In this document: one piece after another, positions 6,339-24,405 of the stretch | Numbering within the stretch: position 1 is the stretch's first letter | Layout of the letters: each line of letters begins with the position of its first letter | Origin: Desulfosoma sp. | Lineage (GTDB): Bacteria; Desulfobacterota; Syntrophobacteria; Syntrophobacterales; DSM-9756 | DNA: 64,000 nt | Direction: 5' to 3' | Assembly: GCA_037481835.1 (NCBI GenBank) | Contig: JBBFKW010000016.1 | Span: forward strand, 55,502 to 119,501 | Notes under the pieces: model-generated | Database searches by the model: none | Told to the model about the DNA's origin: nothing | The model's input: the letters and a program-made list of their open reading frames with translations, nothing else | Position numbers and translations under genes: made by a program

Positions 6339-7049
6339 CTAAAACCCCAAATAGGCCTCGCGCACTTTCGGGTCTTTCTCCAGCTCTCGGCTTGATCCGT
6401 GCCGGACGATGCGCCCGCTTTCGATAACGTAGCCGTAGTGGGCGATCCGAAGGGTCTGGTGGACGTTTTGTTCCACGAGAAAGATCGTAAGGCCCATGGC
6501 GTTCAATTCTTGAATCACCCGAAAAACCTCGTGAACCAGGATGGGGGCCAGCCCCAGGCTTGGTTCATCGAACAGGACCAGGGTGGGGTCCTGCATGAGT
6601 CCTCTGCCGATGGCGAGCATTTGCTGCTCGCCTCCGGAGAGGGTTTCGGCGATCTGGTTACGCCTTTCGGCGAGCCGTGGGAAAAGATCATAGACGCGCC
6701 TGAGGTTTTGGGCGCGTTTTTCTTTGGCGCGCTTCAGGTAGGCGCCGAGGATGAGGTTCTCTTCCACGGTCATCTTGGGGAAGAGCTGGCGGCCTTCGGG
6801 AATGAGGGTGATGCCCTGGGCGACAACCTCGTGCACGGGCATGCCACTGATGCGGCGGTTTTCATAGCGGATCTCGCCGGAACTTACAGGCAGCAGGCCG
6901 CAAATGGTCTTGAGCGTCGTGGTTTTTCCGGCCCCGTTGGCCCCGATCAGGGCGATGATCTGGCGTTCTTGGACATCAAGTGTCATGTCCCACAGGGCCT
7001 GCACATCACCGTAATGGGCCGAGACGTCTTGGAGATGAAGGAGGTTCAT
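6339..7049 (-). CDS. livF: Branched-chain amino acid-type ABC transporter ATPase
   Basis: GANGAGKTT, LSGGEQQMLAIGRGLM, DEPSLGLAP, VEQNV. Confidence 0.93.
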   Translation of the reverse strand: MNLLHLQDVSAHYGDVQALWDMTLDVQERQIIALIGANGAGKTTTLKTICGLLPVSSGEIRYENRRISGMPVHEVVAQGITLIPEGRQLFPKMTVEENLILGAYLKRAKEKRAQNLRRVYDLFPRLAERRNQIAETLSGGEQQMLAIGRGLMQDPTLVLFDEPSLGLAPILVHEVFRVIQELNAMGLTIFLVEQNVHQTLRIAHYGYVIESGRIVRHGSSRELEKDPKVREAYLGF

Positions 7050-7771
7050 GCGACGGATTCTCCCAGGTAGGCTTCGATGACAGCGGGATTTTGGGCCACT
7101 TCCTCTGGAGCGCCTTCGGCGATCTTTTGGCCGTAGTTCAGGACCACCACCCGGTCGCTGATGTTCATGATGACGCGCATGATGTGTTCCACGATGATGA
7201 TGGTGAGACCACGGGCTCGCAGGCTGAGAATGAGCTGCACCGTGCGGTCGGCTTCTGTGGGGTTGAGCCCCGCGACGACTTCGTCGAGCAGGAGCAGGGA
7301 CGGTTCCAAGGCCAAAGCCTTGCTGATTTCCAGGCGCTTTCTGCCGGCAAGGGTGAGGGTTGAGGCCTGATCCCGAGCTCTGTCCGCCAAACCCGTAAAT
7401 TCCAAAATGTCCCACGCATGACGCTCCGCATCCTGCCGGCGGGGGTGCTTGAGCAAGGCCGCTACCACAACATTGTCCAAGACCGTCAACCCGGTGAAGG
7501 GCTTGACGATCTGGAAGGTCCGCCCGATGCCGAGCCGCGCCAGGTTATACGGAGGCAGGCCCGTGATGTCCTGTTCGCGAAAAAAGACTCGCCCCAGCGT
7601 GGGCCTGTAGTAACCGCTGATGAGATTGAACAAGGTGGTTTTCCCGGCGCCGTTGGGCCCGATGAGGCCGAGAATTTCCTGGGGAGCAACCGTGAAACTG
7701 ACAGCCTCCACGGCGTGCAGACCGCCGAAGACTTTGGAGACGGAATCCACGCGAAGCATGGGCTCAGCCAT
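7046..7771 (-). CDS. livG: Branched-chain amino acid-type ABC transporter ATPase
   Basis: [34 protein letters not shown]. Confidence 0.93.
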   Translation of the reverse strand: MAEPMLRVDSVSKVFGGLHAVEAVSFTVAPQEILGLIGPNGAGKTTLFNLISGYYRPTLGRVFFREQDITGLPPYNLARLGIGRTFQIVKPFTGLTVLDNVVVAALLKHPRRQDAERHAWDILEFTGLADRARDQASTLTLAGRKRLEISKALALEPSLLLLDEVVAGLNPTEADRTVQLILSLRARGLTIIIVEHIMRVIMNISDRVVVLNYGQKIAEGAPEEVAQNPAVIEAYLGESVA

Positions 7772-8753
7772 TGGGAACCTCCGAGGCCTTCTTCTTGGTA
7801 TCCGGTTGGGGGGCTTCCGTGGGGACGAGCGGCCTTTTGGCGGTTCGGCTCAGGATCGAGCCCCATAGGCCGTCGGGAAGGAAGACCACACTGAACGCGA
7901 TGAGGGCTCCGAGGATGATGAGATACAGAACCTGGTAGTCGGAAAGATAGGCCCAGAAGTAGGTCTTGAAAGAAAAGAGGACAATGGAGCCGAGAACGGG
8001 GCCGATCAAGGTACCCAGTCCTCCGAAGACAGCCATGACCACGGCCTGGTCGGTGATGATGTCTCCCAGGGTGGAGGCGGGGTCGATGTAGGTGATCCAG
8101 TACGCGTAGATTCCTCCGATGATCCCCGCCGGGCACGCAGACAGGATAAAGGCTTGGATTTTGATACGGGCGGGGTTGAGACCCAGCGCCATGGCTCCGG
8201 CTTCATTTTCCCGAATGGCTTTCAGTTTGAGTCCGAATGGGGCTGTTTCCAGGAGATACCACAGAAGAAAGAAAACGGCCGCCGTGACCGACAACATGGC
8301 GTAGTAGAAAAATTGGGGATGCAGGAACGGCGGCAGCCGCATGCCGTCGGGCCCTCCGGTGATTTCCAAAATCAAAGCCACCTGTTGGACCGCTCGGGCC
8401 AGCGCCCACGTGGCGATGGCAAAATAAGCCCCTTTGAGGCGCAGGGTGGGGATTCCCGCGATGAAAGCCGCCACCGCGGCCACCAGGCCTCCCGCCGCCA
8501 CGGCGAGTGGGAAAGGCCAGCCTCCATGTCCCATGAGGATCGCCGTCGTATAGGCTCCCAGGCCGAAAAAGGCTCCATGACCGAAATTCAGGTAACCCGT
8601 GTATCCAGCCAAAACGTCCCATGTGATGGCCAGCCCGATCCACATGACGGCTTCCGTTAGGACGCGCAAGTAGAACGTATCGTGAACGATCAAAGGGATA
8701 GAGGCCAGCAGGGCTGTCATGGCGACGGCCCAAAGAATCACCTTCCGGGGCAT
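7764..8753 (-). CDS. livM: Liv-type ABC transporter permease
   Basis: GYTGYLNFGHGAFFGLGAY, LRLKGAYFAIAT, TGGPDG. Confidence 0.92.
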   Translation of the reverse strand: MPRKVILWAVAMTALLASIPLIVHDTFYLRVLTEAVMWIGLAITWDVLAGYTGYLNFGHGAFFGLGAYTTAILMGHGGWPFPLAVAAGGLVAAVAAFIAGIPTLRLKGAYFAIATWALARAVQQVALILEITGGPDGMRLPPFLHPQFFYYAMLSVTAAVFFLLWYLLETAPFGLKLKAIRENEAGAMALGLNPARIKIQAFILSACPAGIIGGIYAYWITYIDPASTLGDIITDQAVVMAVFGGLGTLIGPVLGSIVLFSFKTYFWAYLSDYQVLYLIILGALIAFSVVFLPDGLWGSILSRTAKRPLVPTEAPQPDTKKKASEVPNG

Positions 8754-11250: not shown

Positions 11251-13131
11251 TTAGGGCATAGGGCTGTTCAGTCTTTGGGGGCGGTCCGATCCCAGGCCGT
11301 ATTTTTTCATTTTTCGGGACACCGTGGACTGGTTGATGCCCAGCTTTCTCGCAACGGTCCACTGCGAGCCGTAGGTTTCCAGGGCCCTGGTCAGAATGCG
11401 GTATTCGGCGGCTTCCAGGAGGGCTTTGAGAGAGGTGCCTTCCAGGGGGATCTCTTCGGCCCCTTCCCGGTCCCCTGGGCGGCACACGACGTTTTGGGGC
11501 AAATCGTCCAGCCGGATAGGGTTGTTTTCGCACATCACCGCAAGACGCTCGCACAGGTTGACCAGTTCTCGGACGTTTCCCGGATAGTCGTAGGCGGTGA
11601 GCGCATCCGCCGCCTCCCGGCTCAATCGAAGGGCCGGCTTTTGGAGTTTGGTGCAAAAACGTTCCAGATAGTGCTGAAGCATGGGAAAGATGCACTCCCG
11701 CCGTTCCCGCAAGGGGGGGATCCACAAGGGGATGACGTTCAGGCGGTAATAGAGGTCCTTTCGGAATTCACCTCGATCAACCATGGCAGCCAGGTCTCGG
11801 TTCGTGGCAGCAAGGATGCGCACATCCAACTTGCGGCTCGTGGTCCCGCCGACCCGGGTGATTCGCCCGTCTTCCAAAAAGCGCAGGAGTTTCACTTGGG
11901 ACGCTAGGGGCAGTTCGGAAACTTCATCCAGAAGAAGGGTTCCTCCGTCGGCCGCCTCGAAATAGCCGGGCTTGCCGCTCTGGCGGGCTCCGGTAAAGGC
12001 GCCGCGTTCGTAGCCGAAAAGTTCCGCCTCGATGAGGGTTTCCGGAATGGCACCGCAGTTGATGCGAATCATGGGGTGCTGGGCGCGGGGAGAAAACTTG
12101 TGGATAATGTCCGCAATCAGGCCCTTGCCAACGCCGGATTCGCCATGGAGGAGCACGGTGGAGTCGACGGCGCTCACCTTCAAGGCTTGGTGCAACACGT
12201 TGACCATGGCAGGGCTTCGCGCGATGATCTCATGGTCGTGAAGGCGCGCCAGCTGCATGTCCACGATCTGGTTTTTGTATTGGTCCTTGAGGGCTTTTTC
12301 CTGTTCGAGGCTCTTGTAGAGGGCGTCGATTTCCGTGATGTCCCGTTCGTTGACGACGATGAGGGACAATCGACCGCTCTCGTCAAAGACGGGGCTTCCG
12401 GTAAGCATGAGTTTGCGGCCATTTCGGGTGTTTTGAAGGAGGTTGACGACGCGGCCCGTGCGGATGACTTCCAAGGTGGCCGAACAATCCACAAGGCCTT
12501 CTTCCACCAGCTGCCGCATGTTCCGGCCCACCACATCCTGGGCCTTCAGGGCATTAAGGCGTTCCGAGGCGCGGTTGATCCGCAGAACGGTTCCCTCGCC
12601 GTCACAAATCCAGAGCCCGTCGTAGGAGGAGTCGATGATGGCGTCCAGTTCGCGGGAAAGGTTCTGGTAGGACAACAGGGCGCGGGTCACGTCCTCCAAT
12701 TGCAGGCTGTTTTGGAAATGGCACAAGACACCCGGACCGAAGGGGGGACTTTCGAGGGGGCTGATGCGCACCATATAGCGAATTGCGCGGGCATCCTGAA
12801 TACATCCATACCGAACGGCGCCGTCCCTCAGCGTGGCGGACGCTTCGTGCCACACAGCCGGAAAGATCGTTTCAAGATTCGCTCCTTCGGCGATCCCTAG
12901 AAGTTCCCGGCAGGCTTTGTTGACCACGGTGATCGTCTTGGAGGGGTTTGCGGCCAAAAGAGGGTCCCCCATGGCGTCCAAGAGCCGCATGCCGAGGTCG
13001 TCCCAAGGGCGGTCGGATTCCTTTTCCGTCGGTACGTGGGAAAAATATGCTTTCGCCGAGGCCTCCACCACCGTGCGCTCCATCTGGAAGGAAGAAATCG
13101 TCCTTATCAAGTCCGCTCTGGCCCATGCCAT
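11251..13131 (-). CDS. PAS-domain sigma54-dependent transcriptional activator (start uncertain)
   Basis: PAS regions, GESGVGK, ELFGYERGAFTGA, FRKDLYYRLNV, PGNVREL, C-terminal HTH. Confidence 0.92.
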   Translation of the reverse strand: MAWARADLIRTISSFQMERTVVEASAKAYFSHVPTEKESDRPWDDLGMRLLDAMGDPLLAANPSKTITVVNKACRELLGIAEGANLETIFPAVWHEASATLRDGAVRYGCIQDARAIRYMVRISPLESPPFGPGVLCHFQNSLQLEDVTRALLSYQNLSRELDAIIDSSYDGLWICDGEGTVLRINRASERLNALKAQDVVGRNMRQLVEEGLVDCSATLEVIRTGRVVNLLQNTRNGRKLMLTGSPVFDESGRLSLIVVNERDITEIDALYKSLEQEKALKDQYKNQIVDMQLARLHDHEIIARSPAMVNVLHQALKVSAVDSTVLLHGESGVGKGLIADIIHKFSPRAQHPMIRINCGAIPETLIEAELFGYERGAFTGARQSGKPGYFEAADGGTLLLDEVSELPLASQVKLLRFLEDGRITRVGGTTSRKLDVRILAATNRDLAAMVDRGEFRKDLYYRLNVIPLWIPPLRERRECIFPMLQHYLERFCTKLQKPALRLSREAADALTAYDYPGNVRELVNLCERLAVMCENNPIRLDDLPQNVVCRPGDREGAEEIPLEGTSLKALLEAAEYRILTRALETYGSQWTVARKLGINQSTVSRKMKKYGLGSDRPQRLNSPMP

Positions 13132-13244
13132 ATCGCATAGCCTATGCCGAAGCGCATGGTCAAGCCTGGTGTGTGGGGACGTTTCTTGCAGCGCCTTTTG
13201 CGCTTGACTGGCCTAGGCCTTCAGGCATGGCGAGCGGCGAGTAT

Positions 13245-13260: not shown

Positions 13261-13319
13261 AGGTGAGCGGTTCGGCACCTTTTCCGTTGCACGATCCTGC
13301 CTTGAGAAAGGAGTTCAGC

Positions 13320-14624
13320 ATGACCGGATTGTCAAGCGCTCTAATCGAAAGAAGAAACCGCAACGTTCCTCAGGGACCTTTCAATGTGACGCCGGCTTTC
13401 ATCAAAGAAGCCCGAGGGGCCGTCTTGATCGACGTGGATGGCCGGGAACTCATCGACTTTGCAGGCGGCATTGGTGTCATGAATGTCGGCCATTCCCATC
13501 CCAAGGTGGTGGCCGCCTTGAAGGATCAGGCGGAGAAGTTCACGCACACCTGTTTTCACGTGGCCATGTATGAACCCTACGTGGCGCTTGCCGAACGGTT
13601 GAATGCTCTGGCCCCGGGCGATTTTTCCAAGATGACCCTCTTTGCCAACAGCGGTGCGGAGGCGGTGGAAAACGCGGTCAAAATCGCTCGATACGCGACG
13701 CAAAGGCCGGCCGTCATTTGCTTTGAAAACGGCTTTCACGGTCGAACGCTGCTCACCATGACGCTGACCAGCAAGGTCAAACCCTACAAGCTGGGTTTCG
13801 GGCCCTTCGCTCCGGAAGTCTATCGCATGCCCTATGCCTACTGTTACCGATGTCCGTTCCGTCTGCATTACCCCGGCTGCGACGTTGCCTGCGCCGATTA
13901 CCTTGAAGAGTTTTTCATCTCCCATGTGGCTGCGGAATGCACGGCGGCCGTCATCGCCGAACCCATTCAGGGAGAGGGGGGATTTGTCACGCCACCTCCG
14001 GAATATTTCGCCAAACTTCAAAGGATTTGCCAAAAATATGGCATCCTGCTTATCATCGACGAAGTCCAATCGGCCATGGGCCGCACGGGAAAACTCTTCG
14101 CCATCGAACACTGGGGCGTCGTTCCCGACCTGATGACCCTCGCCAAGAGCTTGGCGGCGGGCATGCCGTTGAGCGCCGTGGTCGGTCGGGCCGAACTCAT
14201 GAACAAACCCCACGTGGGCGGCCTGGGCGGCACCTACGGCGGGAACCCTCTGGGATGCCGGGCGGCTCTGGCCGTGCTGGAAATCCTCTTGGACGACGGC
14301 CTGCTCAAGACGGCCGAAGCCTTGGGCGCAAAGGTCCGAAGCGCCTTCAACCGGTTGCAGGAGTCCTACGAAATCATCGGGGATGTGCGGGGCAAGGGGC
14401 CCATGCTCGCCATGGAACTGGTCCGGGACCGGGAAACCAAGGAACCGGCGACGGACGAGGCCAAGAAACTTGTGAATCTCTGCTACCAAAAAGGGCTTGT
14501 GCTGCTTAGCTGCGGCAATTTCGGAAATGTCATCCGAACCCTGATGCCTCTCGTGATCACCGATGAACAATTGGATCGGGGCATGGCCATCTTGGAAGAA
14601 TCCTTGAGGGAACTGACCCGTTGA
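13320..14624 (+). CDS. gabT: Class III PLP aminotransferase, 4-aminobutyrate/5-aminovalerate type
   Basis: IDFAGGIGVMNVGH, NSGAEAVENAVK, FHGRT, EPIQGEGG, DEVQ, AKSLAAGMPLS, GGTYGGNP; AAGGAG RBS. Confidence 0.9.
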   Translation: MTGLSSALIERRNRNVPQGPFNVTPAFIKEARGAVLIDVDGRELIDFAGGIGVMNVGHSHPKVVAALKDQAEKFTHTCFHVAMYEPYVALAERLNALAPGDFSKMTLFANSGAEAVENAVKIARYATQRPAVICFENGFHGRTLLTMTLTSKVKPYKLGFGPFAPEVYRMPYAYCYRCPFRLHYPGCDVACADYLEEFFISHVAAECTAAVIAEPIQGEGGFVTPPPEYFAKLQRICQKYGILLIIDEVQSAMGRTGKLFAIEHWGVVPDLMTLAKSLAAGMPLSAVVGRAELMNKPHVGGLGGTYGGNPLGCRAALAVLEILLDDGLLKTAEALGAKVRSAFNRLQESYEIIGDVRGKGPMLAMELVRDRETKEPATDEAKKLVNLCYQKGLVLLSCGNFGNVIRTLMPLVITDEQLDRGMAILEESLRELTR

Positions 14625-14692
14625 AGACCCAAGGGTCTGAATGAAATATGGGAACGGCATTAGATGGCTTCGGGCAAGTAAAAGGGGGGCGT

Positions 14693-16447
14693 ATGAAAGG
14701 GTTTTTCGGCCGCTATCTCGTGATTGATGTGAAGGAGACCCGGTGGGACGTGGTGCCGCTGGACGAGGCGCTTCTTCGCCGCAGTCTTGGAGGAAAGGGG
14801 CTGGCCACCCGGTTGCTTTTGGAAAGAAACCCCGCAGGGGTCGATCCCCTGTCGCCCGACAACCACCTCATCTTTGCCCTGGGTCCGGCAAGTGATACGG
14901 CCGTCTACGGCTCCTGCCGGCACGGGATCTTTGCCAAATCCCCCCTGACGGGGTTTTACGGCGAGTCCTATTCCGGAGGGCGGGTGGCCATTCCCATGAG
15001 CCGCACGGGTTACGACGCCATAGTGATCCGAGGGGCGTCCGCATCTCCCGTGTGGCTTGAAATTTCGGATATGGAGGTGCGCTTCCACGACGCCTCCGAC
15101 CTGTGGGGCCTGGACACCTTTGAGACGGAAGACCGCGTGCTGGAAAGAGCCGGAATGGACGGGGCGGGCGCCGTGGTCATCGGTCCTGCCGGGGAAAATT
15201 TGGTCCGCTACGCCGTTGTGGAAAACGACTACTGGCGGTCGGCGGGACGCTGCGGCATGGGGGCGGTCCTCGGATCCAAGAAGATCAAAGCCGTGGTGTT
15301 TCACGGCACGCGATCGCGGCCGGTGGCCGATGAAGAAGGCATCAAGACCTACGCTCGAGAAATGGTCAAGAATCTTAAGGACCACAAGGCGACCCAGGCG
15401 TACCGCACCCACGGCACGCCCATGATGGTGGCTTTGCTCAACACGGTGGGAGGGTTCCCCACCCGGTACTGGGCCAAAGGCACCTTCGAACATTGGAAGA
15501 AAATCAGCGCCGAAATCCTGGTGGATCGGTTGGGGGCACGCCCCAAGGCGTGCCGCACGTGCTTCATGGGGTGCGGTAAGTATGTGGAAATCCAGGAGGG
15601 CCGCCACAAGGGGCTAAAGATCGAAGGGCCCGAATATGAAACCATTTATGCCTTCGGCGGCCTGTGCGAAATCGATGCGCTGGATGAAATCGCCCACCTG
15701 AACGATCTGTGTGACCGTCTGGGCATGGACACCATCACGGCGGGAAACATGGCGGCCTTTGCCATCGAAGCCTCCCGACGCGGCGTGATCCGCGAGCGGC
15801 TCGATTATGGGGACGTGGACGCCATCGCCGATCTCCTGGTAAAAATCGCCAAACGGGAAGGAATCGGCGATCTCCTTTCCCAGGGAATCCGTCCGGCGGC
15901 CGCGGAGCTCAAGCTGGAAGAGCTGGCCGTGCACGTCAAAGGCTTGGAACCCGCCGGCTATGACCCCCGTGCCCTCAAGGGCATGGGCCTGGCCTACGCG
16001 GTGAGCGACCGCGGAGCATGCCACCTTCGGGCCACATTTTACAAAGCCGAACTGGCCGGGTTGATCGATCCCCAAAAGATCGAAGGGAAAGCCGAGCTTT
16101 TTTTGGATTTCGAAGACCGATGCACGCTCTTTGACTGCCTTGTCCTGTGCCGTTTCTACAGGGATTTTTACCCTTGGGAGGAGCTTGCTAAGATCATTGA
16201 ACTGACCACGGGCGAACACATGGAAAAGGCCGATCTGCAGAAGATCGCCTCCTTTGTTGTGGACAGTGCGCGCCAATTCAATCTGCGGGAAGGTCTGACC
16301 GCGGCCGACGATCGCCTTCCCCGAAGGCTTCTCGAGGAGCCTTTGGAAGACGGCCGACGCATCACCCAAGAAGAAATGCAGCGGCTCGTCCAAGATTATT
16401 ATCGGCTCAGAGGCTGGAATTCCCAAGGCGTGCCGTCCGTGACATAG
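14693..16447 (+). CDS. aor: Tungsten-dependent aldehyde:ferredoxin oxidoreductase family protein
   Basis: KSPLTG, GPAGENLV, AGRCGMGAVLGSKKIKA, CRTCFMGC, EGPEYET, DRLGMDTI, RGACH. Confidence 0.92.
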   Translation: MKGFFGRYLVIDVKETRWDVVPLDEALLRRSLGGKGLATRLLLERNPAGVDPLSPDNHLIFALGPASDTAVYGSCRHGIFAKSPLTGFYGESYSGGRVAIPMSRTGYDAIVIRGASASPVWLEISDMEVRFHDASDLWGLDTFETEDRVLERAGMDGAGAVVIGPAGENLVRYAVVENDYWRSAGRCGMGAVLGSKKIKAVVFHGTRSRPVADEEGIKTYAREMVKNLKDHKATQAYRTHGTPMMVALLNTVGGFPTRYWAKGTFEHWKKISAEILVDRLGARPKACRTCFMGCGKYVEIQEGRHKGLKIEGPEYETIYAFGGLCEIDALDEIAHLNDLCDRLGMDTITAGNMAAFAIEASRRGVIRERLDYGDVDAIADLLVKIAKREGIGDLLSQGIRPAAAELKLEELAVHVKGLEPAGYDPRALKGMGLAYAVSDRGACHLRATFYKAELAGLIDPQKIEGKAELFLDFEDRCTLFDCLVLCRFYRDFYPWEELAKIIELTTGEHMEKADLQKIASFVVDSARQFNLREGLTAADDRLPRRLLEEPLEDGRRITQEEMQRLVQDYYRLRGWNSQGVPSVT

Positions 16448-17149
16448 GGCAAACCCATGGATGACCATAGTAAAAGGATTTAAACCTTGCCATCACGGGG
16501 GCTGTTCCTAGGACCAAACGACAAAGTTTCTTTCAAGGTCGCCAGAATCCAGGGACAAATAAAGCACTGGCGAAATTCGAGAGAATGACTGGGCGATATA
16601 TATGGGGAATTTCCCCCGTAAAAAACCGTCATCAGGATATTCCCGCTCACTATATCAACACCAGTCGTCAGTTGATGGCTTGGATCGTCAACGTGTACAG
16701 CATGCGGCGTTTTATAACTTTTGCAGGCTCCGCCTGTTCTCACAAGATAAATATCCCTGCAACAGCACAGGTTGGAAAATTCGGAAACCTTGGCTGTCAT
16801 GCTGACAGGCATGTATCTGACGAAGGATATTTTGCAAAAAACTATAAATGGTGCCGACATTCTAGCCAACGCTGGCGGGGCCTGCGTATCCTATTTCGAA
16901 GCGATTCAAAATGTTCGTCAGCTTTTACAGACAGAAAGCGATACCAACGCGTCCATCAAATCAAGAAAAGAGCCTTTCAAGGAGGCTGCACTGTCACTAT
17001 TCGGGGAAAAGTATGCATTTGTACGGCTGCCCACATACGCCATTCAGCACGTGGTGTGAGCGAAAAAGCCGCGAGGGACGTTTTCGTGGCAATGGCATAG
17101 GCGCTCTACTTTGTTGATCTCTCAGTGTCATCCAAAAGAGGAGAGCATT

Positions 17150-17647
17150 ATGAAATCAGGACTACCAATCGAATTGGTCGTTCCGGTGCTGGCCGCACTA
17201 TCGTGCCTTTTAATGAAGGTGGGAGGAGGCCTTCCTGTTTGGGCGGTCTTTCTTGGATGGGCGTGGTATTTTGCTATGGGAGCCACTCCCTCGATTTTAA
17301 AAAAGATTTATCCCGCAGTGATACCTGGATCAGTTCTTGGCGGGCTCTGTCTTTGGCTCATTGGAGCACTGCACAATCTAGGAATTGGGGGCATGCCCGG
17401 CATTATGCTGGCAGTGTTCGTTACCGTATTTATTCTCATGCTTTTCCTGAGGATACCATTAACCAGTGCCGGTCTTCCTGCTTTTAATGCCTACTCTACT
17501 GTGTTTGCGCTTTATGCTATTCCCAATGGATTTCCTTCTATTGGGGGCAACCCGATTTTAGGCTGTATCGTTTGGGGTATGATAGCCAATTTTCTCGGTC
17601 CTGTGTTCGGTTTTTTAAGTATTTATTTATTGTTCAAGAAAGAATGA
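17150..17647 (+). CDS. DUF1097 family membrane protein (possible transporter)
   Basis: Very hydrophobic 165 aa; LPVWAVFLGWAWYFAMG resembles the DUF1097 pattern; GAGGAG RBS. Confidence 0.65.
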   Translation: MKSGLPIELVVPVLAALSCLLMKVGGGLPVWAVFLGWAWYFAMGATPSILKKIYPAVIPGSVLGGLCLWLIGALHNLGIGGMPGIMLAVFVTVFILMLFLRIPLTSAGLPAFNAYSTVFALYAIPNGFPSIGGNPILGCIVWGMIANFLGPVFGFLSIYLLFKKE

Positions 17648-17720
17648 TGGTCTATAAAAGTCCTTTGTGCTTCGTCGATGCTTTCCATTTTGTTTTTCCG
17701 CAAAGGCTAGGAGTATGTCC

Positions 17721-18473
17721 ATGAAAGTAGATATTAACGCTGATGTTGGAGAAAGTTTCGGTCTCTATCGTATGGGTAATGACGAAGAATTTATGCAGTA
17801 CATCACAAGTGCCAATGTTGCCTGTGGGTTTCATGCCGGGGATGCCACCGTCATGCATAGGACCGTGCTCCTGGCAAAGAAATACGGTGTACAGATCGGT
17901 GCTCACCCGGGGTTGCCCGACCGCCAAGGGTTTGGCCGACGTGAGATGAACTGCAGCATTGAGGAAATTTATGACGACGTTATGTATCAGGTTGGAGCGT
18001 TGAAGGCTTTCGTTGAAGCTTCGGGAATGAGATTGCATCATGTGAAGCCTCACGGCTCACTCTATGGCATGGCCAATCGTCGGGCTGAAGTTGCTGAAGC
18101 CATTTGCCAAGTGATCCTTGATGTCGACCCGAAAATGTATTTCTACACGATGAAAAAAGGCCTTGTTGGACAAGTTGCCCGGAAGATGGGCGTGCGGGTT
18201 GTGTTCGAGCTCTATGGAGATTTGGAATACGACCCCGAAGGGAATCTCGTCATTACAAGGCATCATGAGGCTCAGAAACCCAATGCCGTTGCCGCTAAAG
18301 TTCTAAAAATGGTGCAGCACGGCAGAGTTACGGCGACGGACGGGAGCGAAATTGCCATTGAAGGGAGTTCCGTGTGTCTCCACTCGGATACGCCGGACGC
18401 AGTTGAGATTCTCAGGGCTGTGAACCAGGGCCTAAGGGAAGCAGGCTTTTTACTAGAATCTCCTCCTCTATAA
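17721..18473 (+). CDS. pxpA: LamB/YcsF family protein (5-oxoprolinase subunit A-like)
   Basis: DINADVGESFG, SANVACGFHAGD, GAHPG.PD..GFGRR, HVKPHGSLY, CLHSDTP. Confidence 0.93.
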   Translation: MKVDINADVGESFGLYRMGNDEEFMQYITSANVACGFHAGDATVMHRTVLLAKKYGVQIGAHPGLPDRQGFGRREMNCSIEEIYDDVMYQVGALKAFVEASGMRLHHVKPHGSLYGMANRRAEVAEAICQVILDVDPKMYFYTMKKGLVGQVARKMGVRVVFELYGDLEYDPEGNLVITRHHEAQKPNAVAAKVLKMVQHGRVTATDGSEIAIEGSSVCLHSDTPDAVEILRAVNQGLREAGFLLESPPL

Positions 18474-18647
18474 GTAGGGGATCAACCCGCTTGGATCGCC
18501 TCATGCTGAACCGATTATTCCACGTGAGGACATGCATAAGCACGGTAATGTCCTTTGCAGCTAAAGGTGCCCCACAGAAAGCGTGTTTTAAATGATGGAA
18601 ATTGAATTAAAGATTGTAAACATTCTGTAGACGGGAGGATGACGATT

Positions 18648-19634
18648 ATGAGCAGGGGAAAATATCACGTCATACTCGATACGATGCCCGAAACTCCATC
18701 GAGGTTGGAAATCCTTTTCCGACAGGCTGGAGATGGTTTCCTGCAGGTGGAATATGGACGGGAGCCGCGCGCTGCCCTACAGGATTCCTTTAGAATTTTG
18801 GCGGTGAATGACATCATCCGCGATAAAAAAATCAAAGGGCTTATTGAAACAGTTCCTGGACTTCGAACAAATCTTTTTCACTACGATCCTGAGATTTTGT
18901 CAGTCAAAGAGCTAATTGAGCAAATTAAAGAAGCTGAAGATTCAATGCCGACCATCGATGATGTTGTTTTGAATTCCAGATTGATTCATCTTCCCATAGC
19001 TTTCGAAGACAGCGAGACGAAAAAAGCGGTTGAAAAATATGTGAGAGAAGTGAGGCCGGACGCGCCTAATGTCATAAACGGATACAATCTTGAGTATATC
19101 GCTCTTTGTAATGGGGTAACGGTGGAGGAAGCGAAAGGAATGATTTTGGGTACGGAATGGTTTAACAGCGGATGTGGTTTTTGGCCCGGAGGGGCATTCC
19201 TATGGCCCATGGATCCGCGGTGCGCATTGGTGGTCCCCAAATACAATCCCCCCCGAACATGGACCCCGGAAGGCGCCGTGGGGATCGGTGGACCTTGCGT
19301 GTTTACTTACACGACACCGACGGGCGGTGGGTATCAGCTTTTCGGACGGACAATCCCGACATTTCAATTCGCCTGTAAACACCCGATTTTCAAAAACGGC
19401 CCATTCCTCTATCGACCGGCGGACCGCGTGAAATTCCATGAGGTTAGTGAGCAGGAGGTGCTGAATATTTTTGAACATGTCCATGATAAAACGGACTATA
19501 TATATCAGATCGAAGAAGGGCAGGTGGTTGCCAAAGATTACCTGAAATGGGTACAAAGCGAAGATGTTCAGAAAGGTGTTGAGCAATTAAAGGCAAAACA
19601 GGCCGAGGGTGTGAGAAAAGCTCCGCGGCTTTAG
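18648..19634 (+). CDS. Urea carboxylase-like carboxyltransferase C/D subunit (AHS1/PxpB family, long form)
   Basis: RQAGDGFLQVEYG, LPIAFED...VEKYVREVRPDAP, PKYNPPRTWTPEGAVGIGG, GGYQLFGRT. Confidence 0.85.
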   Translation: MSRGKYHVILDTMPETPSRLEILFRQAGDGFLQVEYGREPRAALQDSFRILAVNDIIRDKKIKGLIETVPGLRTNLFHYDPEILSVKELIEQIKEAEDSMPTIDDVVLNSRLIHLPIAFEDSETKKAVEKYVREVRPDAPNVINGYNLEYIALCNGVTVEEAKGMILGTEWFNSGCGFWPGGAFLWPMDPRCALVVPKYNPPRTWTPEGAVGIGGPCVFTYTTPTGGGYQLFGRTIPTFQFACKHPIFKNGPFLYRPADRVKFHEVSEQEVLNIFEHVHDKTDYIYQIEEGQVVAKDYLKWVQSEDVQKGVEQLKAKQAEGVRKAPRL

Positions 19635-19664
19635 AAATCTAAAAAAGAGAAAGGAGTTTCATCC

Positions 19665-20648
19665 ATGTTAAAAATTTTGAATCCCGGAATAGAAGTTTTA
19701 GTTGAAGACTGGCCCGGTCGGCTTGGGTATTTGGGTATGGGGATGTCTGCGTCGGGAGCATTTGATAACGTAGCCCTTGGCTTGGGAAATATTCTGGTAG
19801 GAAATCCTCCCGGCGAGGCAGGCTTGGAAATTACGGGCGGTTTCTTGGAAGCCCAGTTCGGGGAGGATACCGTCATTGCCGTGACTGGAACCGATATGCA
19901 ACCGACCCTTAACAATGAACCTTTTCCCATGTGGCAATCGGTTAGAGTGTCTCGAGGAGATGTGATTAGATTCAAGCATATCGGGCCGTACGGGTTTCGA
20001 AGTTATTTGGCCATAGCCGGTGGCATTGATGTGCCGGTATATCTCGGCAGCAAATCTACGTGTATTTTCGGAGGGTACGGCGGCTTTCAAGGGCGCAAGC
20101 TGGCGGCAGGGGACGAGCTCCGATTGGGGAGGCCAAGTGCTTCCTTAAGTGAACTGGCGGATCGAAAGCTTAAGCCTGGGGTGCAGCCGCAATACGAACG
20201 TGAATGGCGACTTCGAGCGATACCCGGACCGAACACGTGCCCTGATTACGTCACCGAAGAAGGGATGGATCTTCTGTTTTCCAAATCCTTCAAGATCAAT
20301 CACAACTCCAATCGTTCTGCCTATCGTCTGGATCCCTTGCCCGACAGCTTCTTTGCTCGGCCTGACGGCGGGGTAGGTGGGAGCCATCCATCCAATATCC
20401 TGGATCATGCTTATGCCATTCGGGGGGCCTTAAATGTTTGCGGAAACACGCCGATTTTGCTCATTGCCGACGGCCCCACCCTCGGCGGTTATATCTGCTG
20501 CCTAAACGTCATTAACGCTGATTTGTGGAAGATTGGCCAGGGTGCTCCCGGTCGTGATTTTATTAAGTTTGACTACGCAGATCAGGAAACGGCGACACAA
20601 GCACGGATAGCTCAGAAGAAGCTTCTCAGTGAGGATTCCTTAGCTTAA
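19665..20648 (+). CDS. Urea carboxylase-like carboxyltransferase A/B subunit (AHS2/PxpC family)
   Basis: VEDWPGRLGY...SGAFD, GFRSYLAIAGGIDVP.YLGSKST, HPSNILDHAY, DGPTLGGY. Confidence 0.88.
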   Translation: MLKILNPGIEVLVEDWPGRLGYLGMGMSASGAFDNVALGLGNILVGNPPGEAGLEITGGFLEAQFGEDTVIAVTGTDMQPTLNNEPFPMWQSVRVSRGDVIRFKHIGPYGFRSYLAIAGGIDVPVYLGSKSTCIFGGYGGFQGRKLAAGDELRLGRPSASLSELADRKLKPGVQPQYEREWRLRAIPGPNTCPDYVTEEGMDLLFSKSFKINHNSNRSAYRLDPLPDSFFARPDGGVGGSHPSNILDHAYAIRGALNVCGNTPILLIADGPTLGGYICCLNVINADLWKIGQGAPGRDFIKFDYADQETATQARIAQKKLLSEDSLA

Positions 20649-20682
20649 GGTCTTACAGATAACAACTTATAGGAGAGTGTCC

Positions 20683-20901
20683 ATGGAAAAAACTGTTAAT
20701 GCAATTATGCCGGGATTGACCGCACGCGTGGTGGTGAACGTGGGAGATAGAGTGGCAAGAGGCCAGGAGGTGGCCGTCATTAACTGCATGAAAACCGAAA
20801 TTCCCGTTGTGAGCGAGGATGATGGGGTCGTTAAACAAATCCTTGTAAAGGAGTGGGATGAGCTCCAGGTGGGGGATCCCATGGTGGTTTTAGAAGTATA
20901 A
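20683..20901 (+). CDS. Stand-alone biotin carboxyl carrier protein
   Basis: 72-aa biotinyl-domain pattern VGDRVARGQEVAVINCMKTEIPV with MK lysine; AGGAG RBS. Confidence 0.85.
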   Translation: MEKTVNAIMPGLTARVVVNVGDRVARGQEVAVINCMKTEIPVVSEDDGVVKQILVKEWDELQVGDPMVVLEV

Positions 20902-20923
20902 ACCCGGAATGGTATCTATGAAC

Positions 20924-22258
20924 ATGATCAAAAAACTCCTTGTGGCCAACCGTGGTGAAATCGTCCGCCGCATTATCCGAACGTGCCGAGAAATGGGCGT
21001 TCAAACGGTTGCTGTGTTTTCGGAAGCAGATCGCGGGGCTGCTTATGTGACCGATGCAGACCAGGCTGTTTGTATCGGTCCTGCGAATCCTCTGCAGAGT
21101 TATCTGAACATCGATGCCCTTTTGGATGCGGCGCGAAAAACGGGGGCCGATGCGGTTCACCCCGGGTACGGTTTTCTTTCGGAGCGCGGTGCGTTCGCAG
21201 AGGCCGTAGAGAATGCCGGGATGATTTGGGTCGGTCCCCCATCAAAACTCCTGCGCAGGATCAGTTCTAAGTGTGCGTGCAGGCAGATTGCGAGTGAGGT
21301 GGGGGTGCCAGTCGTGCCAGGTACGCTGAAACCGGTTGCCGATCCTGAGGAAATTTTAAAATATGGAAGGCGGCATGGATACCCCCTTTTCCTAAAGCTC
21401 GACAAAGGAGGTGGGGGCAAAGGTATTTCGAGGATTAACGGCCCCGAGGATGTGGAGCGAGTCTTCAAGCAGGCGAGCAGTATTGGAAGTGTGGCTTTTG
21501 GATCTTCGGACTGCTATTTAGAGCATGTCGTGGCAAAGCCTCGCCACATTGAGGTCCAGTTTGTGGCGGACAAGCACGGCAACTGTGTTTGTCTCGGAGA
21601 GCGCGAGTGTTCCATTCAACGACGAAATCAAAAAATTATAGAGGAGGGTCCATCGCCTGCGGTCTCCCCAGAAGAGCGAGCCCTGTTATTCGATTGGACC
21701 AGGCGGATTGTGCTCCGTATGGGATACCACGGGGCAGGAACGATCGAAGGGCTTCGGTCCGCGGATGGGAGCTACTATTTCATGGAAATAAATGCCCGCC
21801 TGCAGGTGGAACATGCGGTGAGCGAGTTCATAACAGGCCTTGACATTGTCAAGTGCCAGCTTGAAATATCTTGCGGGATGCCGCTCAGTTTTGTTCAAGA
21901 GGAAGTTAGCCTTAGCGGACACGCTATCGAGGCGCGAATTTACGCCGAAGACCCCGAAACCTTCATGCCTTCACCGGGCATTATCAAAAGACTCAGTCTT
22001 CCCGCAGTTAATAATTGCCTGAGGATCGACCATGCCCTTGCAGAAAACACAACTGTTCCCCCATATTACGATCCCCTCCTCGCCAAGGTCGTTGCTTGGG
22101 ATGGGAATCGGCCAGCGGCCATTGGGCGACTAACCGAGGCGCTCAAGCGTATTGAAATTGAAGGGATTAAGACCAACATTCAAACGAGCCTGAAGGTCCT
22201 AAGTAGTGAGTTGTTTCTGCGCGGTGAGTATGACACCTCGTTTTTGAGTGGAGAATAA
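20924..22258 (+). CDS. Biotin carboxylase (alternative starts at 20909 and 20918)
   Basis: KKLLVANRGE, HPGYGFLSE, GGGGKG, ERECSIQRRNQK, MEINARLQVEH, YYDPLLAK. Confidence 0.93.
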   Translation: MIKKLLVANRGEIVRRIIRTCREMGVQTVAVFSEADRGAAYVTDADQAVCIGPANPLQSYLNIDALLDAARKTGADAVHPGYGFLSERGAFAEAVENAGMIWVGPPSKLLRRISSKCACRQIASEVGVPVVPGTLKPVADPEEILKYGRRHGYPLFLKLDKGGGGKGISRINGPEDVERVFKQASSIGSVAFGSSDCYLEHVVAKPRHIEVQFVADKHGNCVCLGERECSIQRRNQKIIEEGPSPAVSPEERALLFDWTRRIVLRMGYHGAGTIEGLRSADGSYYFMEINARLQVEHAVSEFITGLDIVKCQLEISCGMPLSFVQEEVSLSGHAIEARIYAEDPETFMPSPGIIKRLSLPAVNNCLRIDHALAENTTVPPYYDPLLAKVVAWDGNRPAAIGRLTEALKRIEIEGIKTNIQTSLKVLSSELFLRGEYDTSFLSGE

Positions 22259-22294
22259 TGTAATATTATTTGTGAATCGCGTGACGACTTGGTA

Positions 22295-22318
22295 AGGGCA
22301 GGAAGTCTATCCTGCCCT
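22295..22318 (+). terminator. Hairpin after the carboxylase operon
   Basis: 9-bp stem AGGGCAGGA/TCCTGCCCT; no strong U tract. Confidence 0.4.
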
Positions 22319-22414
22319 AAGATATTAAATTCGATTTTCCTGGAAGCATATAGAAACAAAGCGTTTTCCTCCGAATGAATTTCAACGCCGAGGGGGGGTG
22401 TTTCTTTGGAGAGT

Positions 22415-23975
22415 TGAATCCGTGACGGCTAAGGGAATGAGCCTCTATGGAGCCCTGGGAGAACCTTTTTGAGCACCACGGCGGTCGATTGACATCAGAA
22501 TCGGACGCCGCAGCCGTCAAATCCGGTTGATGTATGACGGAGCAATAAATTGTGCCTCTTTGGGACGCACTTCCCCCTTTAAGACACTTCGGGGTGTCTG
22601 TGTTTACCGGCCCCCTCATGGGGGTTTTAGGCCAGGCAGAATTTTACAAAGAGCCTTCGAAAGGGTGCATACCCCGAACGATGCCGCCCGAATTGAAGCT
22701 CGATGAGCCGTCCCGTGTGAATCACCCGGGCCGCAAGGACGATGAGTTCCTGGATGACGGTTCCAATGCGCCGCCTTTTGGCAGGATGGCGAACCGGGGC
22801 GTCGTCTCCCAGAAGGCCTTCCTCGCCGATTATCCGAAGAACATTGTCAACCATCGCCCCAAGAGTCAGCACCAAGGCGTTGATGGAAAACTTTCCCGAG
22901 GGCAGCCGCTCCAAATCCAGGTCCGTTTTGATTTCACTATGAAACGGCTCGCTCAGACCCCGGTTTTCGTAAAGAACGATGATGTCTTCTTCAGGAAGAT
23001 GCACGTTCGTCTACCATCCTTCGAGCTCGATAACCGGCTCAAGAAGCCTCTGTCCCTTGGCGTCGGCCGTCCTGATCGTAACCCGAATTACCAACCGATA
23101 ATGCTCAAGCCTGCCCTCGTGGTTTCGGGGTATCGACACGCTCAAAAGCCCCAGCTGCTTTCCGGAACTCCGCTGGCCTACGCACCCTTCGGTGGAGACT
23201 TTCTGTGCCCAATGGGCCCGATTCGCTCTTCGTGGATTTCATTTGACGATAAAGGCGGTGATCTCATGGGCCGAAAGTTCCGCTCGGGTCTCCACAGCAT
23301 CATGAGCCGCATCAAGCCTCACGAGAAGGGGCTTTTCGGTCAACCGGCGGGCGTTGTCCAAGGTCCCTCGCAAGAAAGGCACAAACCCGTTCTGGGAATG
23401 CTGACTCCCCTCCCGCAGCTCAACCCCGAGGCACCATCCCTCCGATCCCAGGTAGGCCCCAATGGGCGCATAGCCGTCATAGCCCTGGGAGGTTCGAGAA
23501 ACGCCCTCTTTTTGGGTCTTGGAATTGTCCAAGCAGAAAACATCCACGTCCAAAGCCACGTGGCCAGTAGGAAGCTCCGTTACGGGAATGTGGACGTTCT
23601 CCAGAAGCTCCACTGCCAATGGCCTCCCGGAACCACGCGTCCTTGCTCACTCCACGGACGGCCTGAAAATCGCTCCTGCCCGTTGCCAACACCCCGAGGG
23701 AGGTTTTCATCACGTCCTTGTGCGGGGTTTTGGGATACCCCCAACCCCATCCTGTTCTGGAAGAGCGTCGTGTAGTTATTGACCCGCGCCCCGAAAAGGG
23801 CCAGACCTGATTACTGTAGATGACCTTGGAGGATTGATCGATCTCGATCTGTTCATCATTGAACCTTCAGAGTGAGTTAAATACTGTAACGTCTATGCCA
23901 TAAAAAGCTAGATAAGTCAACCTCGTGAATGGCATATTATACTTTTATGGATAGGTCTTCTTTCACGGATTCAGG
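22415..23975 (-). mobile_element. Decayed IS1380-family insertion sequence
   Basis: Inverted ends TGAATCCGTGA (22415-22425) and TCACGGATTCAGG (23963-23975) flank a fragmented transposase. Confidence 0.75.
22627..23859 (-). pseudogene. IS1380-family DDE transposase pseudogene with several frameshifts/stops
   Basis: Fragments in different frames: LATGRSDFQAV; LDVDVFCLDNSKTQKEGVSRT..GYDGYAPI..LREGSQHSQ..VRLDA; YENRG.SE.FHSEIKTDLDLERLPSGKF. Confidence 0.85.
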
Positions 23976-23988
23976 GAGATGTTAAAAG

Positions 23989-24405
23989 ATGATGCATCAA
24001 ATTGAAGGGCGTTTCAAAATCCTTGTGGGGTACGACGGGACGCGGACAGCGAAAGAGGCCCTGAACGTGGCCTTGTTTCATGCGCGACATTTTCATGCGG
24101 AGGTGCATGTGGCCTGGTCCCTCACGGGAGGTCAAAGCACTTCGGCGGAAGAAATCGACACCGCCCGGGATGGACTCCACCATGTGGAAGATCTGTTCGG
24201 GGAGGCCCAGATCCCCTGTCAAACCCATCTCCTGATCCGGGGGCTTTCCCCGGGAGAGGATTTGGTGCGGTTCGCTGAAGAGCATGCGGTGGGGGAAATC
24301 ATCATCGGGGTCCGACGCCGTTCCCAGGTGGGAAAGCTTCTTTTCGGCTCCACAGCGCGCTACGTGATCCTCAACGCCCCCTGCCCCGTTGTCAGCGTCA
24401 AGTAG
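23989..24405 (+). CDS. Universal stress protein
   Basis: KILVGYDG, IIIGVRRRSQVGKLLFGSTARYVILNAPCPVVSVK. Confidence 0.93.
   Translation: MMHQIEGRFKILVGYDGTRTAKEALNVALFHARHFHAEVHVAWSLTGGQSTSAEEIDTARDGLHHVEDLFGEAQIPCQTHLLIRGLSPGEDLVRFAEEHAVGEIIIGVRRRSQVGKLLFGSTARYVILNAPCPVVSVK

Follow-up and report, generated by a model that had tools for sequence, protein, structure and literature searches.

A four-subunit, urea-carboxylase-type biotin enzyme paired with LamB in Desulfosoma sp., with a proposed role in converting lactams to GABA

We analysed a 64,000-nt stretch of DNA from Desulfosoma sp. (assembly GCA_037481835.1, contig JBBFKW010000016.1, positions 55,502-119,501 of the forward strand; hereafter the window), in which positions 17150-22258 hold six intact genes, all on the + strand and separated by gaps of 7-165 nt. 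These genes encode a DUF1097 membrane protein, a LamB/PxpA-family hydrolase, two carboxyltransferase (CT) subunits, a BCCP (biotin carboxyl carrier protein) and a biotin carboxylase (BC). We propose, with a probability of roughly 60%, that the encoded enzyme activates a lactam through ATP- and biotin-dependent carboxylation and that hydrolysis by LamB then yields 4-aminobutyrate (GABA). On this reading the fungal LamA/LamB system has a bacterial counterpart in the cluster, with four subunits and borne by anaerobes. Comparative genomics supports the proposed function of the cluster; the substrate, the carboxylated intermediate and the roles of LamB and DUF1097 we infer. A first-pass annotation of the window had described the same co-oriented genes, with coordinates and gene order that are exact by Pfam, and had suggested a four-subunit, urea-carboxylase-like biotin-dependent N-carboxylase acting with LamB on a lactam or amide. 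This suggestion fits the urea-carboxylase (UC) type of the CT subunits, the BCCP lysine, the separate pxpABC genes of the genome and the lack of urea or guanidine partners, all described below. The matches of the six genes to their Pfam families far exceed the cut-offs:

17150-17647 (open reading frame (ORF) 17111-17647), + strand: DUF1097, a small polytopic membrane protein with several hydrophobic segments, 165 aa from the ATG at 17150 (PF06496, E 2.8e-18 to 3.6e-18)
17667-18473 (likely start 17715), + strand: LamB/PxpA-family metal hydrolase (LamB_YcsF, E 3.5e-94)
18639-19634, + strand: CT_C_D carboxyltransferase subunit, UC type, 331 aa (CT_C_D, E 5.8e-42)
19665-20648, + strand: CT_A_B carboxyltransferase subunit, UC type, 327 aa (CT_A_B, E 1.3e-82)
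20677-20901, + strand: minimal BCCP, 74 aa (Biotin_lipoyl, E 2.2e-15)
20909-22258, + strand: BC, 449 aa (CPSase_L_D2, E 4e-59; Biotin_carb_N, E 3e-44; Biotin_carb_C, E 4e-32)

The reaction can be sketched by analogy with urea carboxylase. BC would use ATP and bicarbonate to form carboxybiotin on the 74-aa BCCP, and the CT_A_B/CT_C_D pair, homologous to the CT domain that urea carboxylase carries on a single chain, would then hand the carboxyl on to a small neutral lactam, at its amide nitrogen (or lactim oxygen). The likeliest substrate is 2-pyrrolidone or a near homologue, for instance 2-piperidone. The LamB/PxpA-type metal hydrolase would cleave the activated ring, and the resulting carbamate would lose CO2 to give GABA (or 5-aminovalerate). 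The net reaction (lactam + ATP + H2O to omega-amino acid + ADP + Pi) would drive an unfavourable ring opening forward. GABA would be passed to the adjacent native GABA transaminase (GABA-AT) and then, via a tungsten-type aldehyde:ferredoxin oxidoreductase (AOR), to succinate, with DUF1097 as a candidate uptake protein for the substrate. The same evidence fits 2-pyrrolidone, 2-piperidone and related lactams and cannot separate them; GABA-AT-type enzymes often accept 5-aminovalerate too. For caprolactam, hydrolysis at neutral pH is reported to cost +23 kJ/mol (PMC8453981).

The UC character of the CT subunits, which the first-pass annotation had inferred from motifs, is seen in model scores, in full-length alignment with a UC structure and in a catalytic lysine. 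CT_C_D scores 230.7 bits against the NCBIfam urea carboxylase model TIGR02712 (model positions 787-1097 of 1201) and 53.4 bits against the PxpB equivalog TIGR00370, below its cut-off of 145.55. Similarly, CT_A_B scores 295 bits against TIGR02712 (positions 449-764) and 175.8 bits against the PxpC equivalog NF045499, below its cut-off of 500. The TIGR02712 equivalog itself is not reached, as the four proteins score 456.7, 295, 230.7 and 39.2 bits, a sum of ~1,022 against a cut-off of 1,303.85. Both CT halves align over their full length with the K. lactis urea carboxylase structures 3va7/5i8i (133 and 213 bits), CT_C_D with residues 824-1122 of 3va7 and CT_A_B at 212.9 bits to 3va7 vs 116.6 to YbgK, whereas PxpB/KipI-type chains (at most 52 bits) and PxpC/KipA-type chains (at most 117 bits) match the core of the CT halves only. 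CT_C_D is also ~100 residues longer than PxpB.

Three CT motifs previously quoted as typical of urea and guanidine carboxylases are real and informative when aligned with urea carboxylases and PxpB. The first, VEKYVREVRPDAP, sits in an insertion of ~21 residues that is common to urea carboxylases and absent from both E. coli PxpB and the genome's own PxpB. The second, KYNPPRTWTPEGAVGIGG, contains a Lys aligned with K1605 of the K. lactis urea amidolyase (KlUA). This residue (K201 of CT_C_D, counted along the alignment, within the motif KYNPPRTWT) is invariant in 41/41 family members, whereas E. coli PxpB and the genome's own PxpB carry Arg in its place. Lys1605 of KlUA is described as the likely general base, and the K1605A substitution as crippling the enzyme, in PMC5770610. 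The HPSN of the third motif, HPSNILDHAY, is shared with K. lactis UC and is likewise invariant in 41/41 family members.

Specificity is reported to be set by an Asp in guanidine carboxylases vs an Asn in urea carboxylases, at a position that the review passage does not state (PMC12186494). Only one column of our alignment behaves as such a switch, namely CT_A_B Asn257 (Asn1330 of KlUA by count), and it is presumably the published position. The column holds Asn in the uca of a Salmonella plasmid (encoded with atzF and urtABCDE) and in two yeast-type amidolyases, and Asp in a Rhizobium uca (encoded with UAAP1/UAAP2) and its nearest relative. Asn is found here in 52/53 members of the family, and in 41/41 in a second alignment, a pattern that speaks for a neutral carbonyl compound as substrate and against a guanidinium one. 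Complex prediction for CT_C_D and CT_A_B with the LamB partner (41-row alignments each) returned a score of 0.00, which is uninformative either way.

A CT phylogeny and a survey of homologous neighbourhoods were among the checks suggested with the first-pass annotation. For the former we used a quick maximum-likelihood tree of 68 CT_C_D rows, rooted on PxpB and with SH-aLRT support only. Its rows were the window protein, 13 of the 71 related loci described below, 27 standalone and 22 fused cluster representatives, a Thermomicrobium roseum protein, two context-labelled uca proteins and, as outgroup, E. coli PxpB and the genome's own PxpB. Separate from PxpB, a single clade (53 rows, SH-aLRT 99) unites the long CT_C_D proteins. 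Here a standalone clade (~320-345 aa; 26 rows, support 85), which contains the cluster's family (15 rows, support 99), is sister to a fused clade (27 rows, support 98) of urea-context, guanidine-context and yeast amidolyase proteins together with fungal UC-only proteins, the last named by their sources. Shorter standalone CT_C_D forms (265-301 aa; archaea and Desulfobacterales) branch between PxpB and the long clade. On this tree the split enzyme is not a PxpB and, with its family sister to all fused urea carboxylases, not a recent fission of one of them either. The position of the fungal UC-only proteins within the fused clade makes the bacterial family an analogue of LamA and not its orthologue.

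LamB scores above the cut-off of the PxpA subfamily NF003814 (312.5 bits, cut-off 226) and below that of each of three PxpA equivalogs (273 vs 392, 243.4 vs 337 and 199.2 vs 378), and its identity to PxpA is 37.6% for the genome's own protein and 36.8% for that of E. coli. Across the related loci, two LamB types can be told apart, deeply separated and well supported (14 and 26 rows), which track the two main gene orders; the window LamB is in the 'type 1' clade. The two types share only 40-46% identity, compared with 63-75% for CT_C_D from these loci, which suggests that LamB was recruited twice, or evolved much faster. The BCCP carries the motif VINCMKTE, and the biotinyl Met-Lys pair is kept in 38/38 family BCCPs. 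The context of this pair is an unusual V-I-N-C-M-K-T/N-E (N[C/S]MK) in 32/38, and the canonical E-A-M-K-M in six Bacillota. BC reaches 531 bits against its best NCBIfam model and passes no equivalog; the sole other biotin carboxylase of the genome is on contig C2.

The genome also carries a canonical pxpA-pxpC-pxpB set (contig C7, 121520-127483), the products of which are 27-38% identical to the window proteins. Next to this set lie genes of a TRAP transporter, among them ORFs resembling DctM and DctQ and one for a probable binding protein, and the whole may represent a unit for 5-oxoproline uptake and hydrolysis. As noted in the first-pass annotation, neither AtzF nor CgdAB is encoded in the cluster; a complex that carboxylates only urea or guanidine, with a partner encoded elsewhere, had been named there as a result that would count against its reading. 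No such partner was found in this 99.4%-complete genome, in which DUF1989 (CgdAB) has 0 matches and the best match to the allophanate hydrolase model TIGR02713 (AtzF) reaches 220.6 bits, below the cut-off of 511.05.

The cluster lies next to genes for GABA catabolism, which we distinguish here from the DNA that carries the cluster:

11251-13131, - strand: PAS-domain sigma-54 activator, native, divergent from the GABA-AT gene (Pfam Sigma54_activat, PAS, HTH)
13263-14624, + strand: GABA-AT (4-aminobutyrate transaminase), native, proposed downstream step (TIGR00700, 566 bits, cut-off 506.65)
14648-16447, + strand: AOR, native, proposed to oxidise succinate semialdehyde (Pfam AFOR_N, AFOR_C)
16419-24010, no strand: 7.6-kb insertion with the six-gene cluster (same-genus synteny, lower GC)
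22300-24000, - strand: remnant of a decayed IS1380-family transposase, at the insertion's right end (two DDE_Tnp_1_4 fragments that stay under the Pfam cut-off, 22627-23004 and 23239-23619)

The six-gene cluster is a recent, horizontally acquired 7.6-kb insertion. In two genomes of the same genus (G001 and G002), which lack the cluster, the genes for the sigma-54 activator, GABA-AT and AOR keep their synteny with ~77% DNA identity. Both genomes follow the window up to ~16418-16437 and then, within ~200 nt, continue with USP and ribF (window 24011 onward), so that window positions 16419-24010 are the insertion and the GABA-AT/AOR module is native. GC content is 47-54% inside the insertion vs 57-63% in the flanks, and its right end matches annotated IS1380 transposases at 66-74% by blastn; no terminal repeats were found flanking the 7.6 kb. 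The cluster was not found in the three same-genus and five same-family genomes examined. Elsewhere in the order 3/32 genomes yielded it, but with an identity (62-65%) below that seen to other lineages, and so did 4/400 other sampled genomes of the phylum. The sequencing runs that carry it are DNA only, from sediment and hot-spring metagenomes.

We next consider the 71 related loci, obtained from a scan of one genome per species; unless all 71 are stated, neighbour counts refer to the 51 complete loci with at least 6 kb on both sides. By their record titles, nearly all belong to anaerobic groups, namely Thermodesulfobacteriota, Bacillota (including Pelotomaculum, Desulfotruncus, Acetobacterium, Anaerovorax and Anoxynatronum) and two Thermoleophilia. 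Carriers in culture include Desulfoferrobacter suflitae DRH4, Desulfotruncus arcticus, Acetobacterium bakii, Pelotomaculum propionicicum and Anoxynatronum spp. The family CT_C_D is 60-87% identical across phyla, and the best 120 of 819 metagenome relatives are 71-87% identical to the window protein. Close relatives are 326-330 aa long, and the names that relatives carry are 'urea carboxylase', 'allophanate hydrolase subunit 1' and 'carboxyltransferase domain-containing protein'. LamB occurs with the CT pair in 51/51 loci (LamB 51, CT_A_B 51), BCCP in 48 and BC in 44. The order of the core genes varies, with at least five orders, of which LamB first, as in the window, accounts for 27 loci and LamB after CT_A_B for 18.

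The same survey reveals a recurrent association with GABA catabolism. A GABA-AT homologue (at least 50% identity to that of the window) adjoins the core in 25/51 loci and an AOR homologue (at least 50% identity) in 11/51, so that one or the other is found beside the core in 26/51; a homologue of the PAS/sigma-54 activator (~40% identity) is present in 25/51. Among all 71 loci, GABA-AT lies between LamB and CT_C_D in 7, and a further 9 have it on the same strand and no farther than 1.5 kb away; in Desulfoferrobacter suflitae AOR is directly 5' of LamB. USP, RibF and HflX, native control genes from the other side of the insertion, are found in 0/71 loci, and therefore the GABA-AT/AOR association is not leftover synteny. 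These recurrent neighbours point to a lactam that yields GABA. The insertion in Desulfosoma sp. thus recreated the architecture seen in other lineages, either by chance or by selection.

Other neighbours are less frequent. ORF clustering of the 71 loci gave BirA in 5, an Fe-alcohol dehydrogenase in 5 and glutamate dehydrogenase in 4, and a stricter tblastn re-count gave 3, 4 and 1, respectively. Genes for hydantoinase A/B (HyuA/HyuB) are near the core in 4-5 related loci. In 14/51 loci (e.g., L013:13621-14790 and L034:8532-9596) the core has a gene for an Old Yellow Enzyme (Oxidored_FMN) close by, and its product might reduce an unsaturated lactam or imide ahead of ring opening.

Three membrane modules accompany the core. 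In 16/51 loci the module is an ABC importer, made up of a binding protein of TorT type, an ATPase with two ABC domains and a permease; in 13/51 it is a SatP-like six-helix membrane protein of ~200 aa, encoded between BCCP and BC. DUF1097 is found in 8/51 (12/71 overall, in no case with either of the other two modules); the 11 DUF1097 genes called by ORF clustering are on the same strand as CT_C_D and less than 7 kb from it, and the DUF1097 of the window is the only one in its genome. Exactly one of the three modules is present in 37/51 loci and two together in none. This mutual exclusivity suggests that unrelated proteins fill one role, most simply substrate uptake, and it lends support to the earlier idea of DUF1097 as a candidate substrate importer. 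The SatP-like protein (e.g., L039:12577-13185, and 17 other related loci such as L073:12369-12974) has no Pfam match even at E 5; the ESM Atlas places it near SatP/GPR1/YaaH-family clusters (0.96), which serves as a lead only.

Several observations weigh against the conversion of a lactam to GABA. The substrate would be assigned from gene neighbourhood alone, and since the GABA-AT/AOR/sigma-54 module is native, its adjacency to the cluster could be an accident of insertion. The 660-nt spacer between AOR and the cluster has no recognisable sigma-54 site, and no RNA data were found for the cluster. Nearly half of the complete loci (25/51) have neither GABA-AT nor a close AOR, and their neighbours are diverse. 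In T. roseum, the cluster adjoins a three-subunit enzyme of the xanthine-dehydrogenase family, not GABA genes, and the wider standalone clade probably handles several substrates. Finally, Asn at the switch column is equally what a true urea carboxylase has, and a LamB/CT/BC operon of A. baumannii has been linked genetically to urea use, via the BC gene only (PMC5050338).

Some of these points would be met by another cyclic amide or imide, unrelated to GABA in this genome, such as an N-heterocycle-derived lactam formed via a hydroxylase or an ene-reductase, with the GABA-AT/AOR adjacency being accidental. The foreign origin of the insertion beside a native module, the share of complete loci devoid of GABA genes, the Old Yellow Enzyme and hydantoinase A/B neighbours and the xanthine-dehydrogenase-type neighbour in T. 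roseum all agree with this alternative. We nevertheless consider it unlikely, given that the cross-phylum identity of CT_C_D argues for one substrate class, that GABA-AT is part of the operon in 7 loci and borders it directly in another 9, and that the genes from the other side of the insertion are never found with the core. The T. roseum locus itself (L079, megaplasmid 742016-760906) is a distant relative, at 42-45% identity, and encodes BCCP, CT_C_D, CT_A_B, PxpA and BioY together with the same TorT-like ABC importer; its neighbour hints at a different, heterocycle-derived lactam.

It is quite improbable that the enzyme is a true urea carboxylase, or a carboxylase of N-carbamoyl (ureido) compounds such as N-carbamoyl-GABA, in which LamB replaces allophanate hydrolase. 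In favour of this alternative, urea carboxylases are the enzyme's nearest relatives among solved structures and models, it retains the catalytic Lys and the switch-column Asn, and a ureido-GABA substrate would also account for GABA-AT. Growth of A. baumannii on urea depends on mumC (BC), yet the LamB and CT-half mutants still used urea (PMC5050338). Moreover, no urea transporter, urease accessory genes or AtzF were seen in the annotated neighbourhoods or in this genome, the family is sister to, and not inside, the fused UC clade of urea- and guanidine-context enzymes, and the LamB family is tied to ring amides in both systems with genetics, fungal lam and Pxp.

The least probable alternative, and in our view a very unlikely one, is a 5-oxoprolinase variant, that is, a PxpABC with its own BC and BCCP that converts 5-oxoproline or a substituted pyroglutamate to glutamate: LamB does pass the PxpA subfamily model, a six-gene S. 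aureus operon reportedly includes pxpB, pxpC, pxpA, accB and accC (PMC11315280) and mycobacterial PxpC/PxpB homologues bind BCCP-biotin (PMC13012033), but the genome already has canonical pxpABC, the PxpB and PxpC equivalogs fail badly, the catalytic residue is Lys as in UC and not Arg as in the two PxpB compared, and a glutamate product leaves the recurrent GABA-AT neighbour unexplained.

The mycobacterial work leads to a broader and rather doubtful speculation. The PxpC/PxpB homologues MSMEG_0435-0436 are reported to be clamped on the biotin of the AccA3 BCCP and to show no urea carboxylase activity (PMC13012033). Based on this, carboxybiotin activation might be the general mechanism of the whole LamB/PxpA + CT_C_D + CT_A_B superfamily, with DUF1097 as an unrecognised channel or carrier for small neutral amides. 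The present cluster would then be the self-contained archetype and fungal LamA/LamB its fused form, and canonical PxpABC would be a stripped-down version that borrows carboxybiotin from the BCCP of acetyl-/acyl-CoA carboxylase. Given the binding of MSMEG_0435-0436 to biotin, the premise of the first-pass annotation that canonical PxpABC works without a biotin carrier can no longer be taken as settled.

A few further features of the window deserve mention. The 660-nt leader between AOR and DUF1097 (16448-17110, ~50% GC) holds a pair of overlapping ORFs, of 171 and 129 aa, neither with a Pfam match, and shows no clear promoter; Rfam gave no match in the leader or anywhere over 16300-24100 at E up to 1. 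A sigma-54 promoter scan of the window returned 23 matches vs 29 expected by chance; a weak -24/-12-like site with 2 mismatches is located upstream of GABA-AT, at 13175-13190. Genes for an ABC ATPase and a branched-chain-type permease, upstream of the sigma-54 activator (6339-8753, - strand), may be part of the native GABA/amino-acid module.

The known openers of stable small lactams are ATP-dependent HyuA/B-type enzymes and the poorly understood PxpABC. If a LamB-coupled biotin enzyme does carry out this reaction, it would add a new activity to the biotin enzymes and be the first among them whose carboxylation step has the sole purpose of activating an amide for ring hydrolysis. It would also provide a molecular function for fungal lamA/lamB, known since the 1980s, a mechanistic model for PxpABC, a role for DUF1097, and a route by which pyrrolidone-type compounds, which arise from polyamine and GABA chemistry and from the breakdown of nylon-4, polyvinylpyrrolidone (PVP) and N-methylpyrrolidone (NMP), enter the GABA catabolism of strict anaerobes. 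Such an enzyme would bear on the biocatalysis of lactams and omega-amino acids. Our search, which left most subscription journals outside, found no literature linking the split cluster, or any biotin enzyme, to lactam hydrolysis, or assigning a GABA function to a cluster of this kind; neither a P. putida nitrogen RB-TnSeq preprint nor a paper on C. glutamicum pxp reports anything on biotin or LamB.

Among known systems, bacterial PxpABC draws on the same Pfam families (LamB_YcsF, CT_C_D and CT_A_B), and both PxpABC and the proposed reaction open a five-membered lactam at the cost of ATP. The cluster differs in its own BC and BCCP, in the longer CT_C_D with a UC-type insertion and in Lys instead of Arg, and it is set apart from the genome's own Pxp proteins by low identity and by scores short of the PxpB and PxpC equivalog cut-offs. 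Similar in gene content are the A. baumannii mumTLUHC operon (NRAMP, LamB, two CT halves and BC), in which only the BC mutant is reported to have lost growth on urea (PMC5050338), and the S. aureus pxp-acc operon (PMC11315280), which likewise bring LamB, two CT halves and BC/BCCP together. They differ from the cluster in having an NRAMP manganese transporter or in being interpreted as systems for urea or 5-oxoproline. The 150 nearest cluster representatives do not include their CT halves, and the operons are compared by published gene content only. Lactiplantibacillus pentosus has an extra BC/BCCP pair as well as PxpB/PxpC-like genes (PMC12427679), and split CT halves were noted as unstudied in 2011 (PMC3199775). 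The HyuA/HyuB-type enzymes (caprolactamase, OplAB and eukaryotic 5-oxoprolinase) carry out an analogous overall reaction, the ATP-driven hydrolysis of a stable lactam. Caprolactamase, which is unrelated, requires bicarbonate too, in addition to ATP, and a carboxy-lactim intermediate has been proposed for it (PMC8453981). These enzymes, however, have no homology to the cluster and no biotin, and HyuA/B genes are separate neighbours where they occur near the core.

Urea carboxylase, urea amidolyase and guanidine carboxylase (uca, DUR1,2) share with the cluster BC, BCCP, a four-subdomain CT, the Lys1605 equivalent and HPSN, and urea carboxylase proper shares the Asn at the switch column. The cluster enzyme is, in contrast, encoded by four genes, has LamB and not AtzF or CgdAB as its partner, and falls in a separate clade.

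The closest functional parallel is the LamA/LamB pair of A. nidulans, whose LamA we take to be UniProt P38095; to our knowledge, no biochemistry has been published for fungal LamA. In both systems a UC-type carboxylase is combined with LamB, as it is throughout the related loci, and both are linked to GABA transaminase, by regulation in the fungus and by gene adjacency in the cluster. Specifically, the lactam-catabolic genes lamA and lamB are reported to be under AmdR, as are the GABA transaminase gene gatA and the GABA permease gene gabA (PMC8016842), and the lactam is described as yielding GABA (PMC8016842, PMC3073912). The fungal UC-only protein is a single polypeptide of 1,241 aa (PMC3073912) within the fused-UC clade, whereas the cluster enzyme consists of four proteins from the sister standalone clade, and its hosts are strict anaerobes with a ferredoxin-linked aldehyde oxidoreductase.

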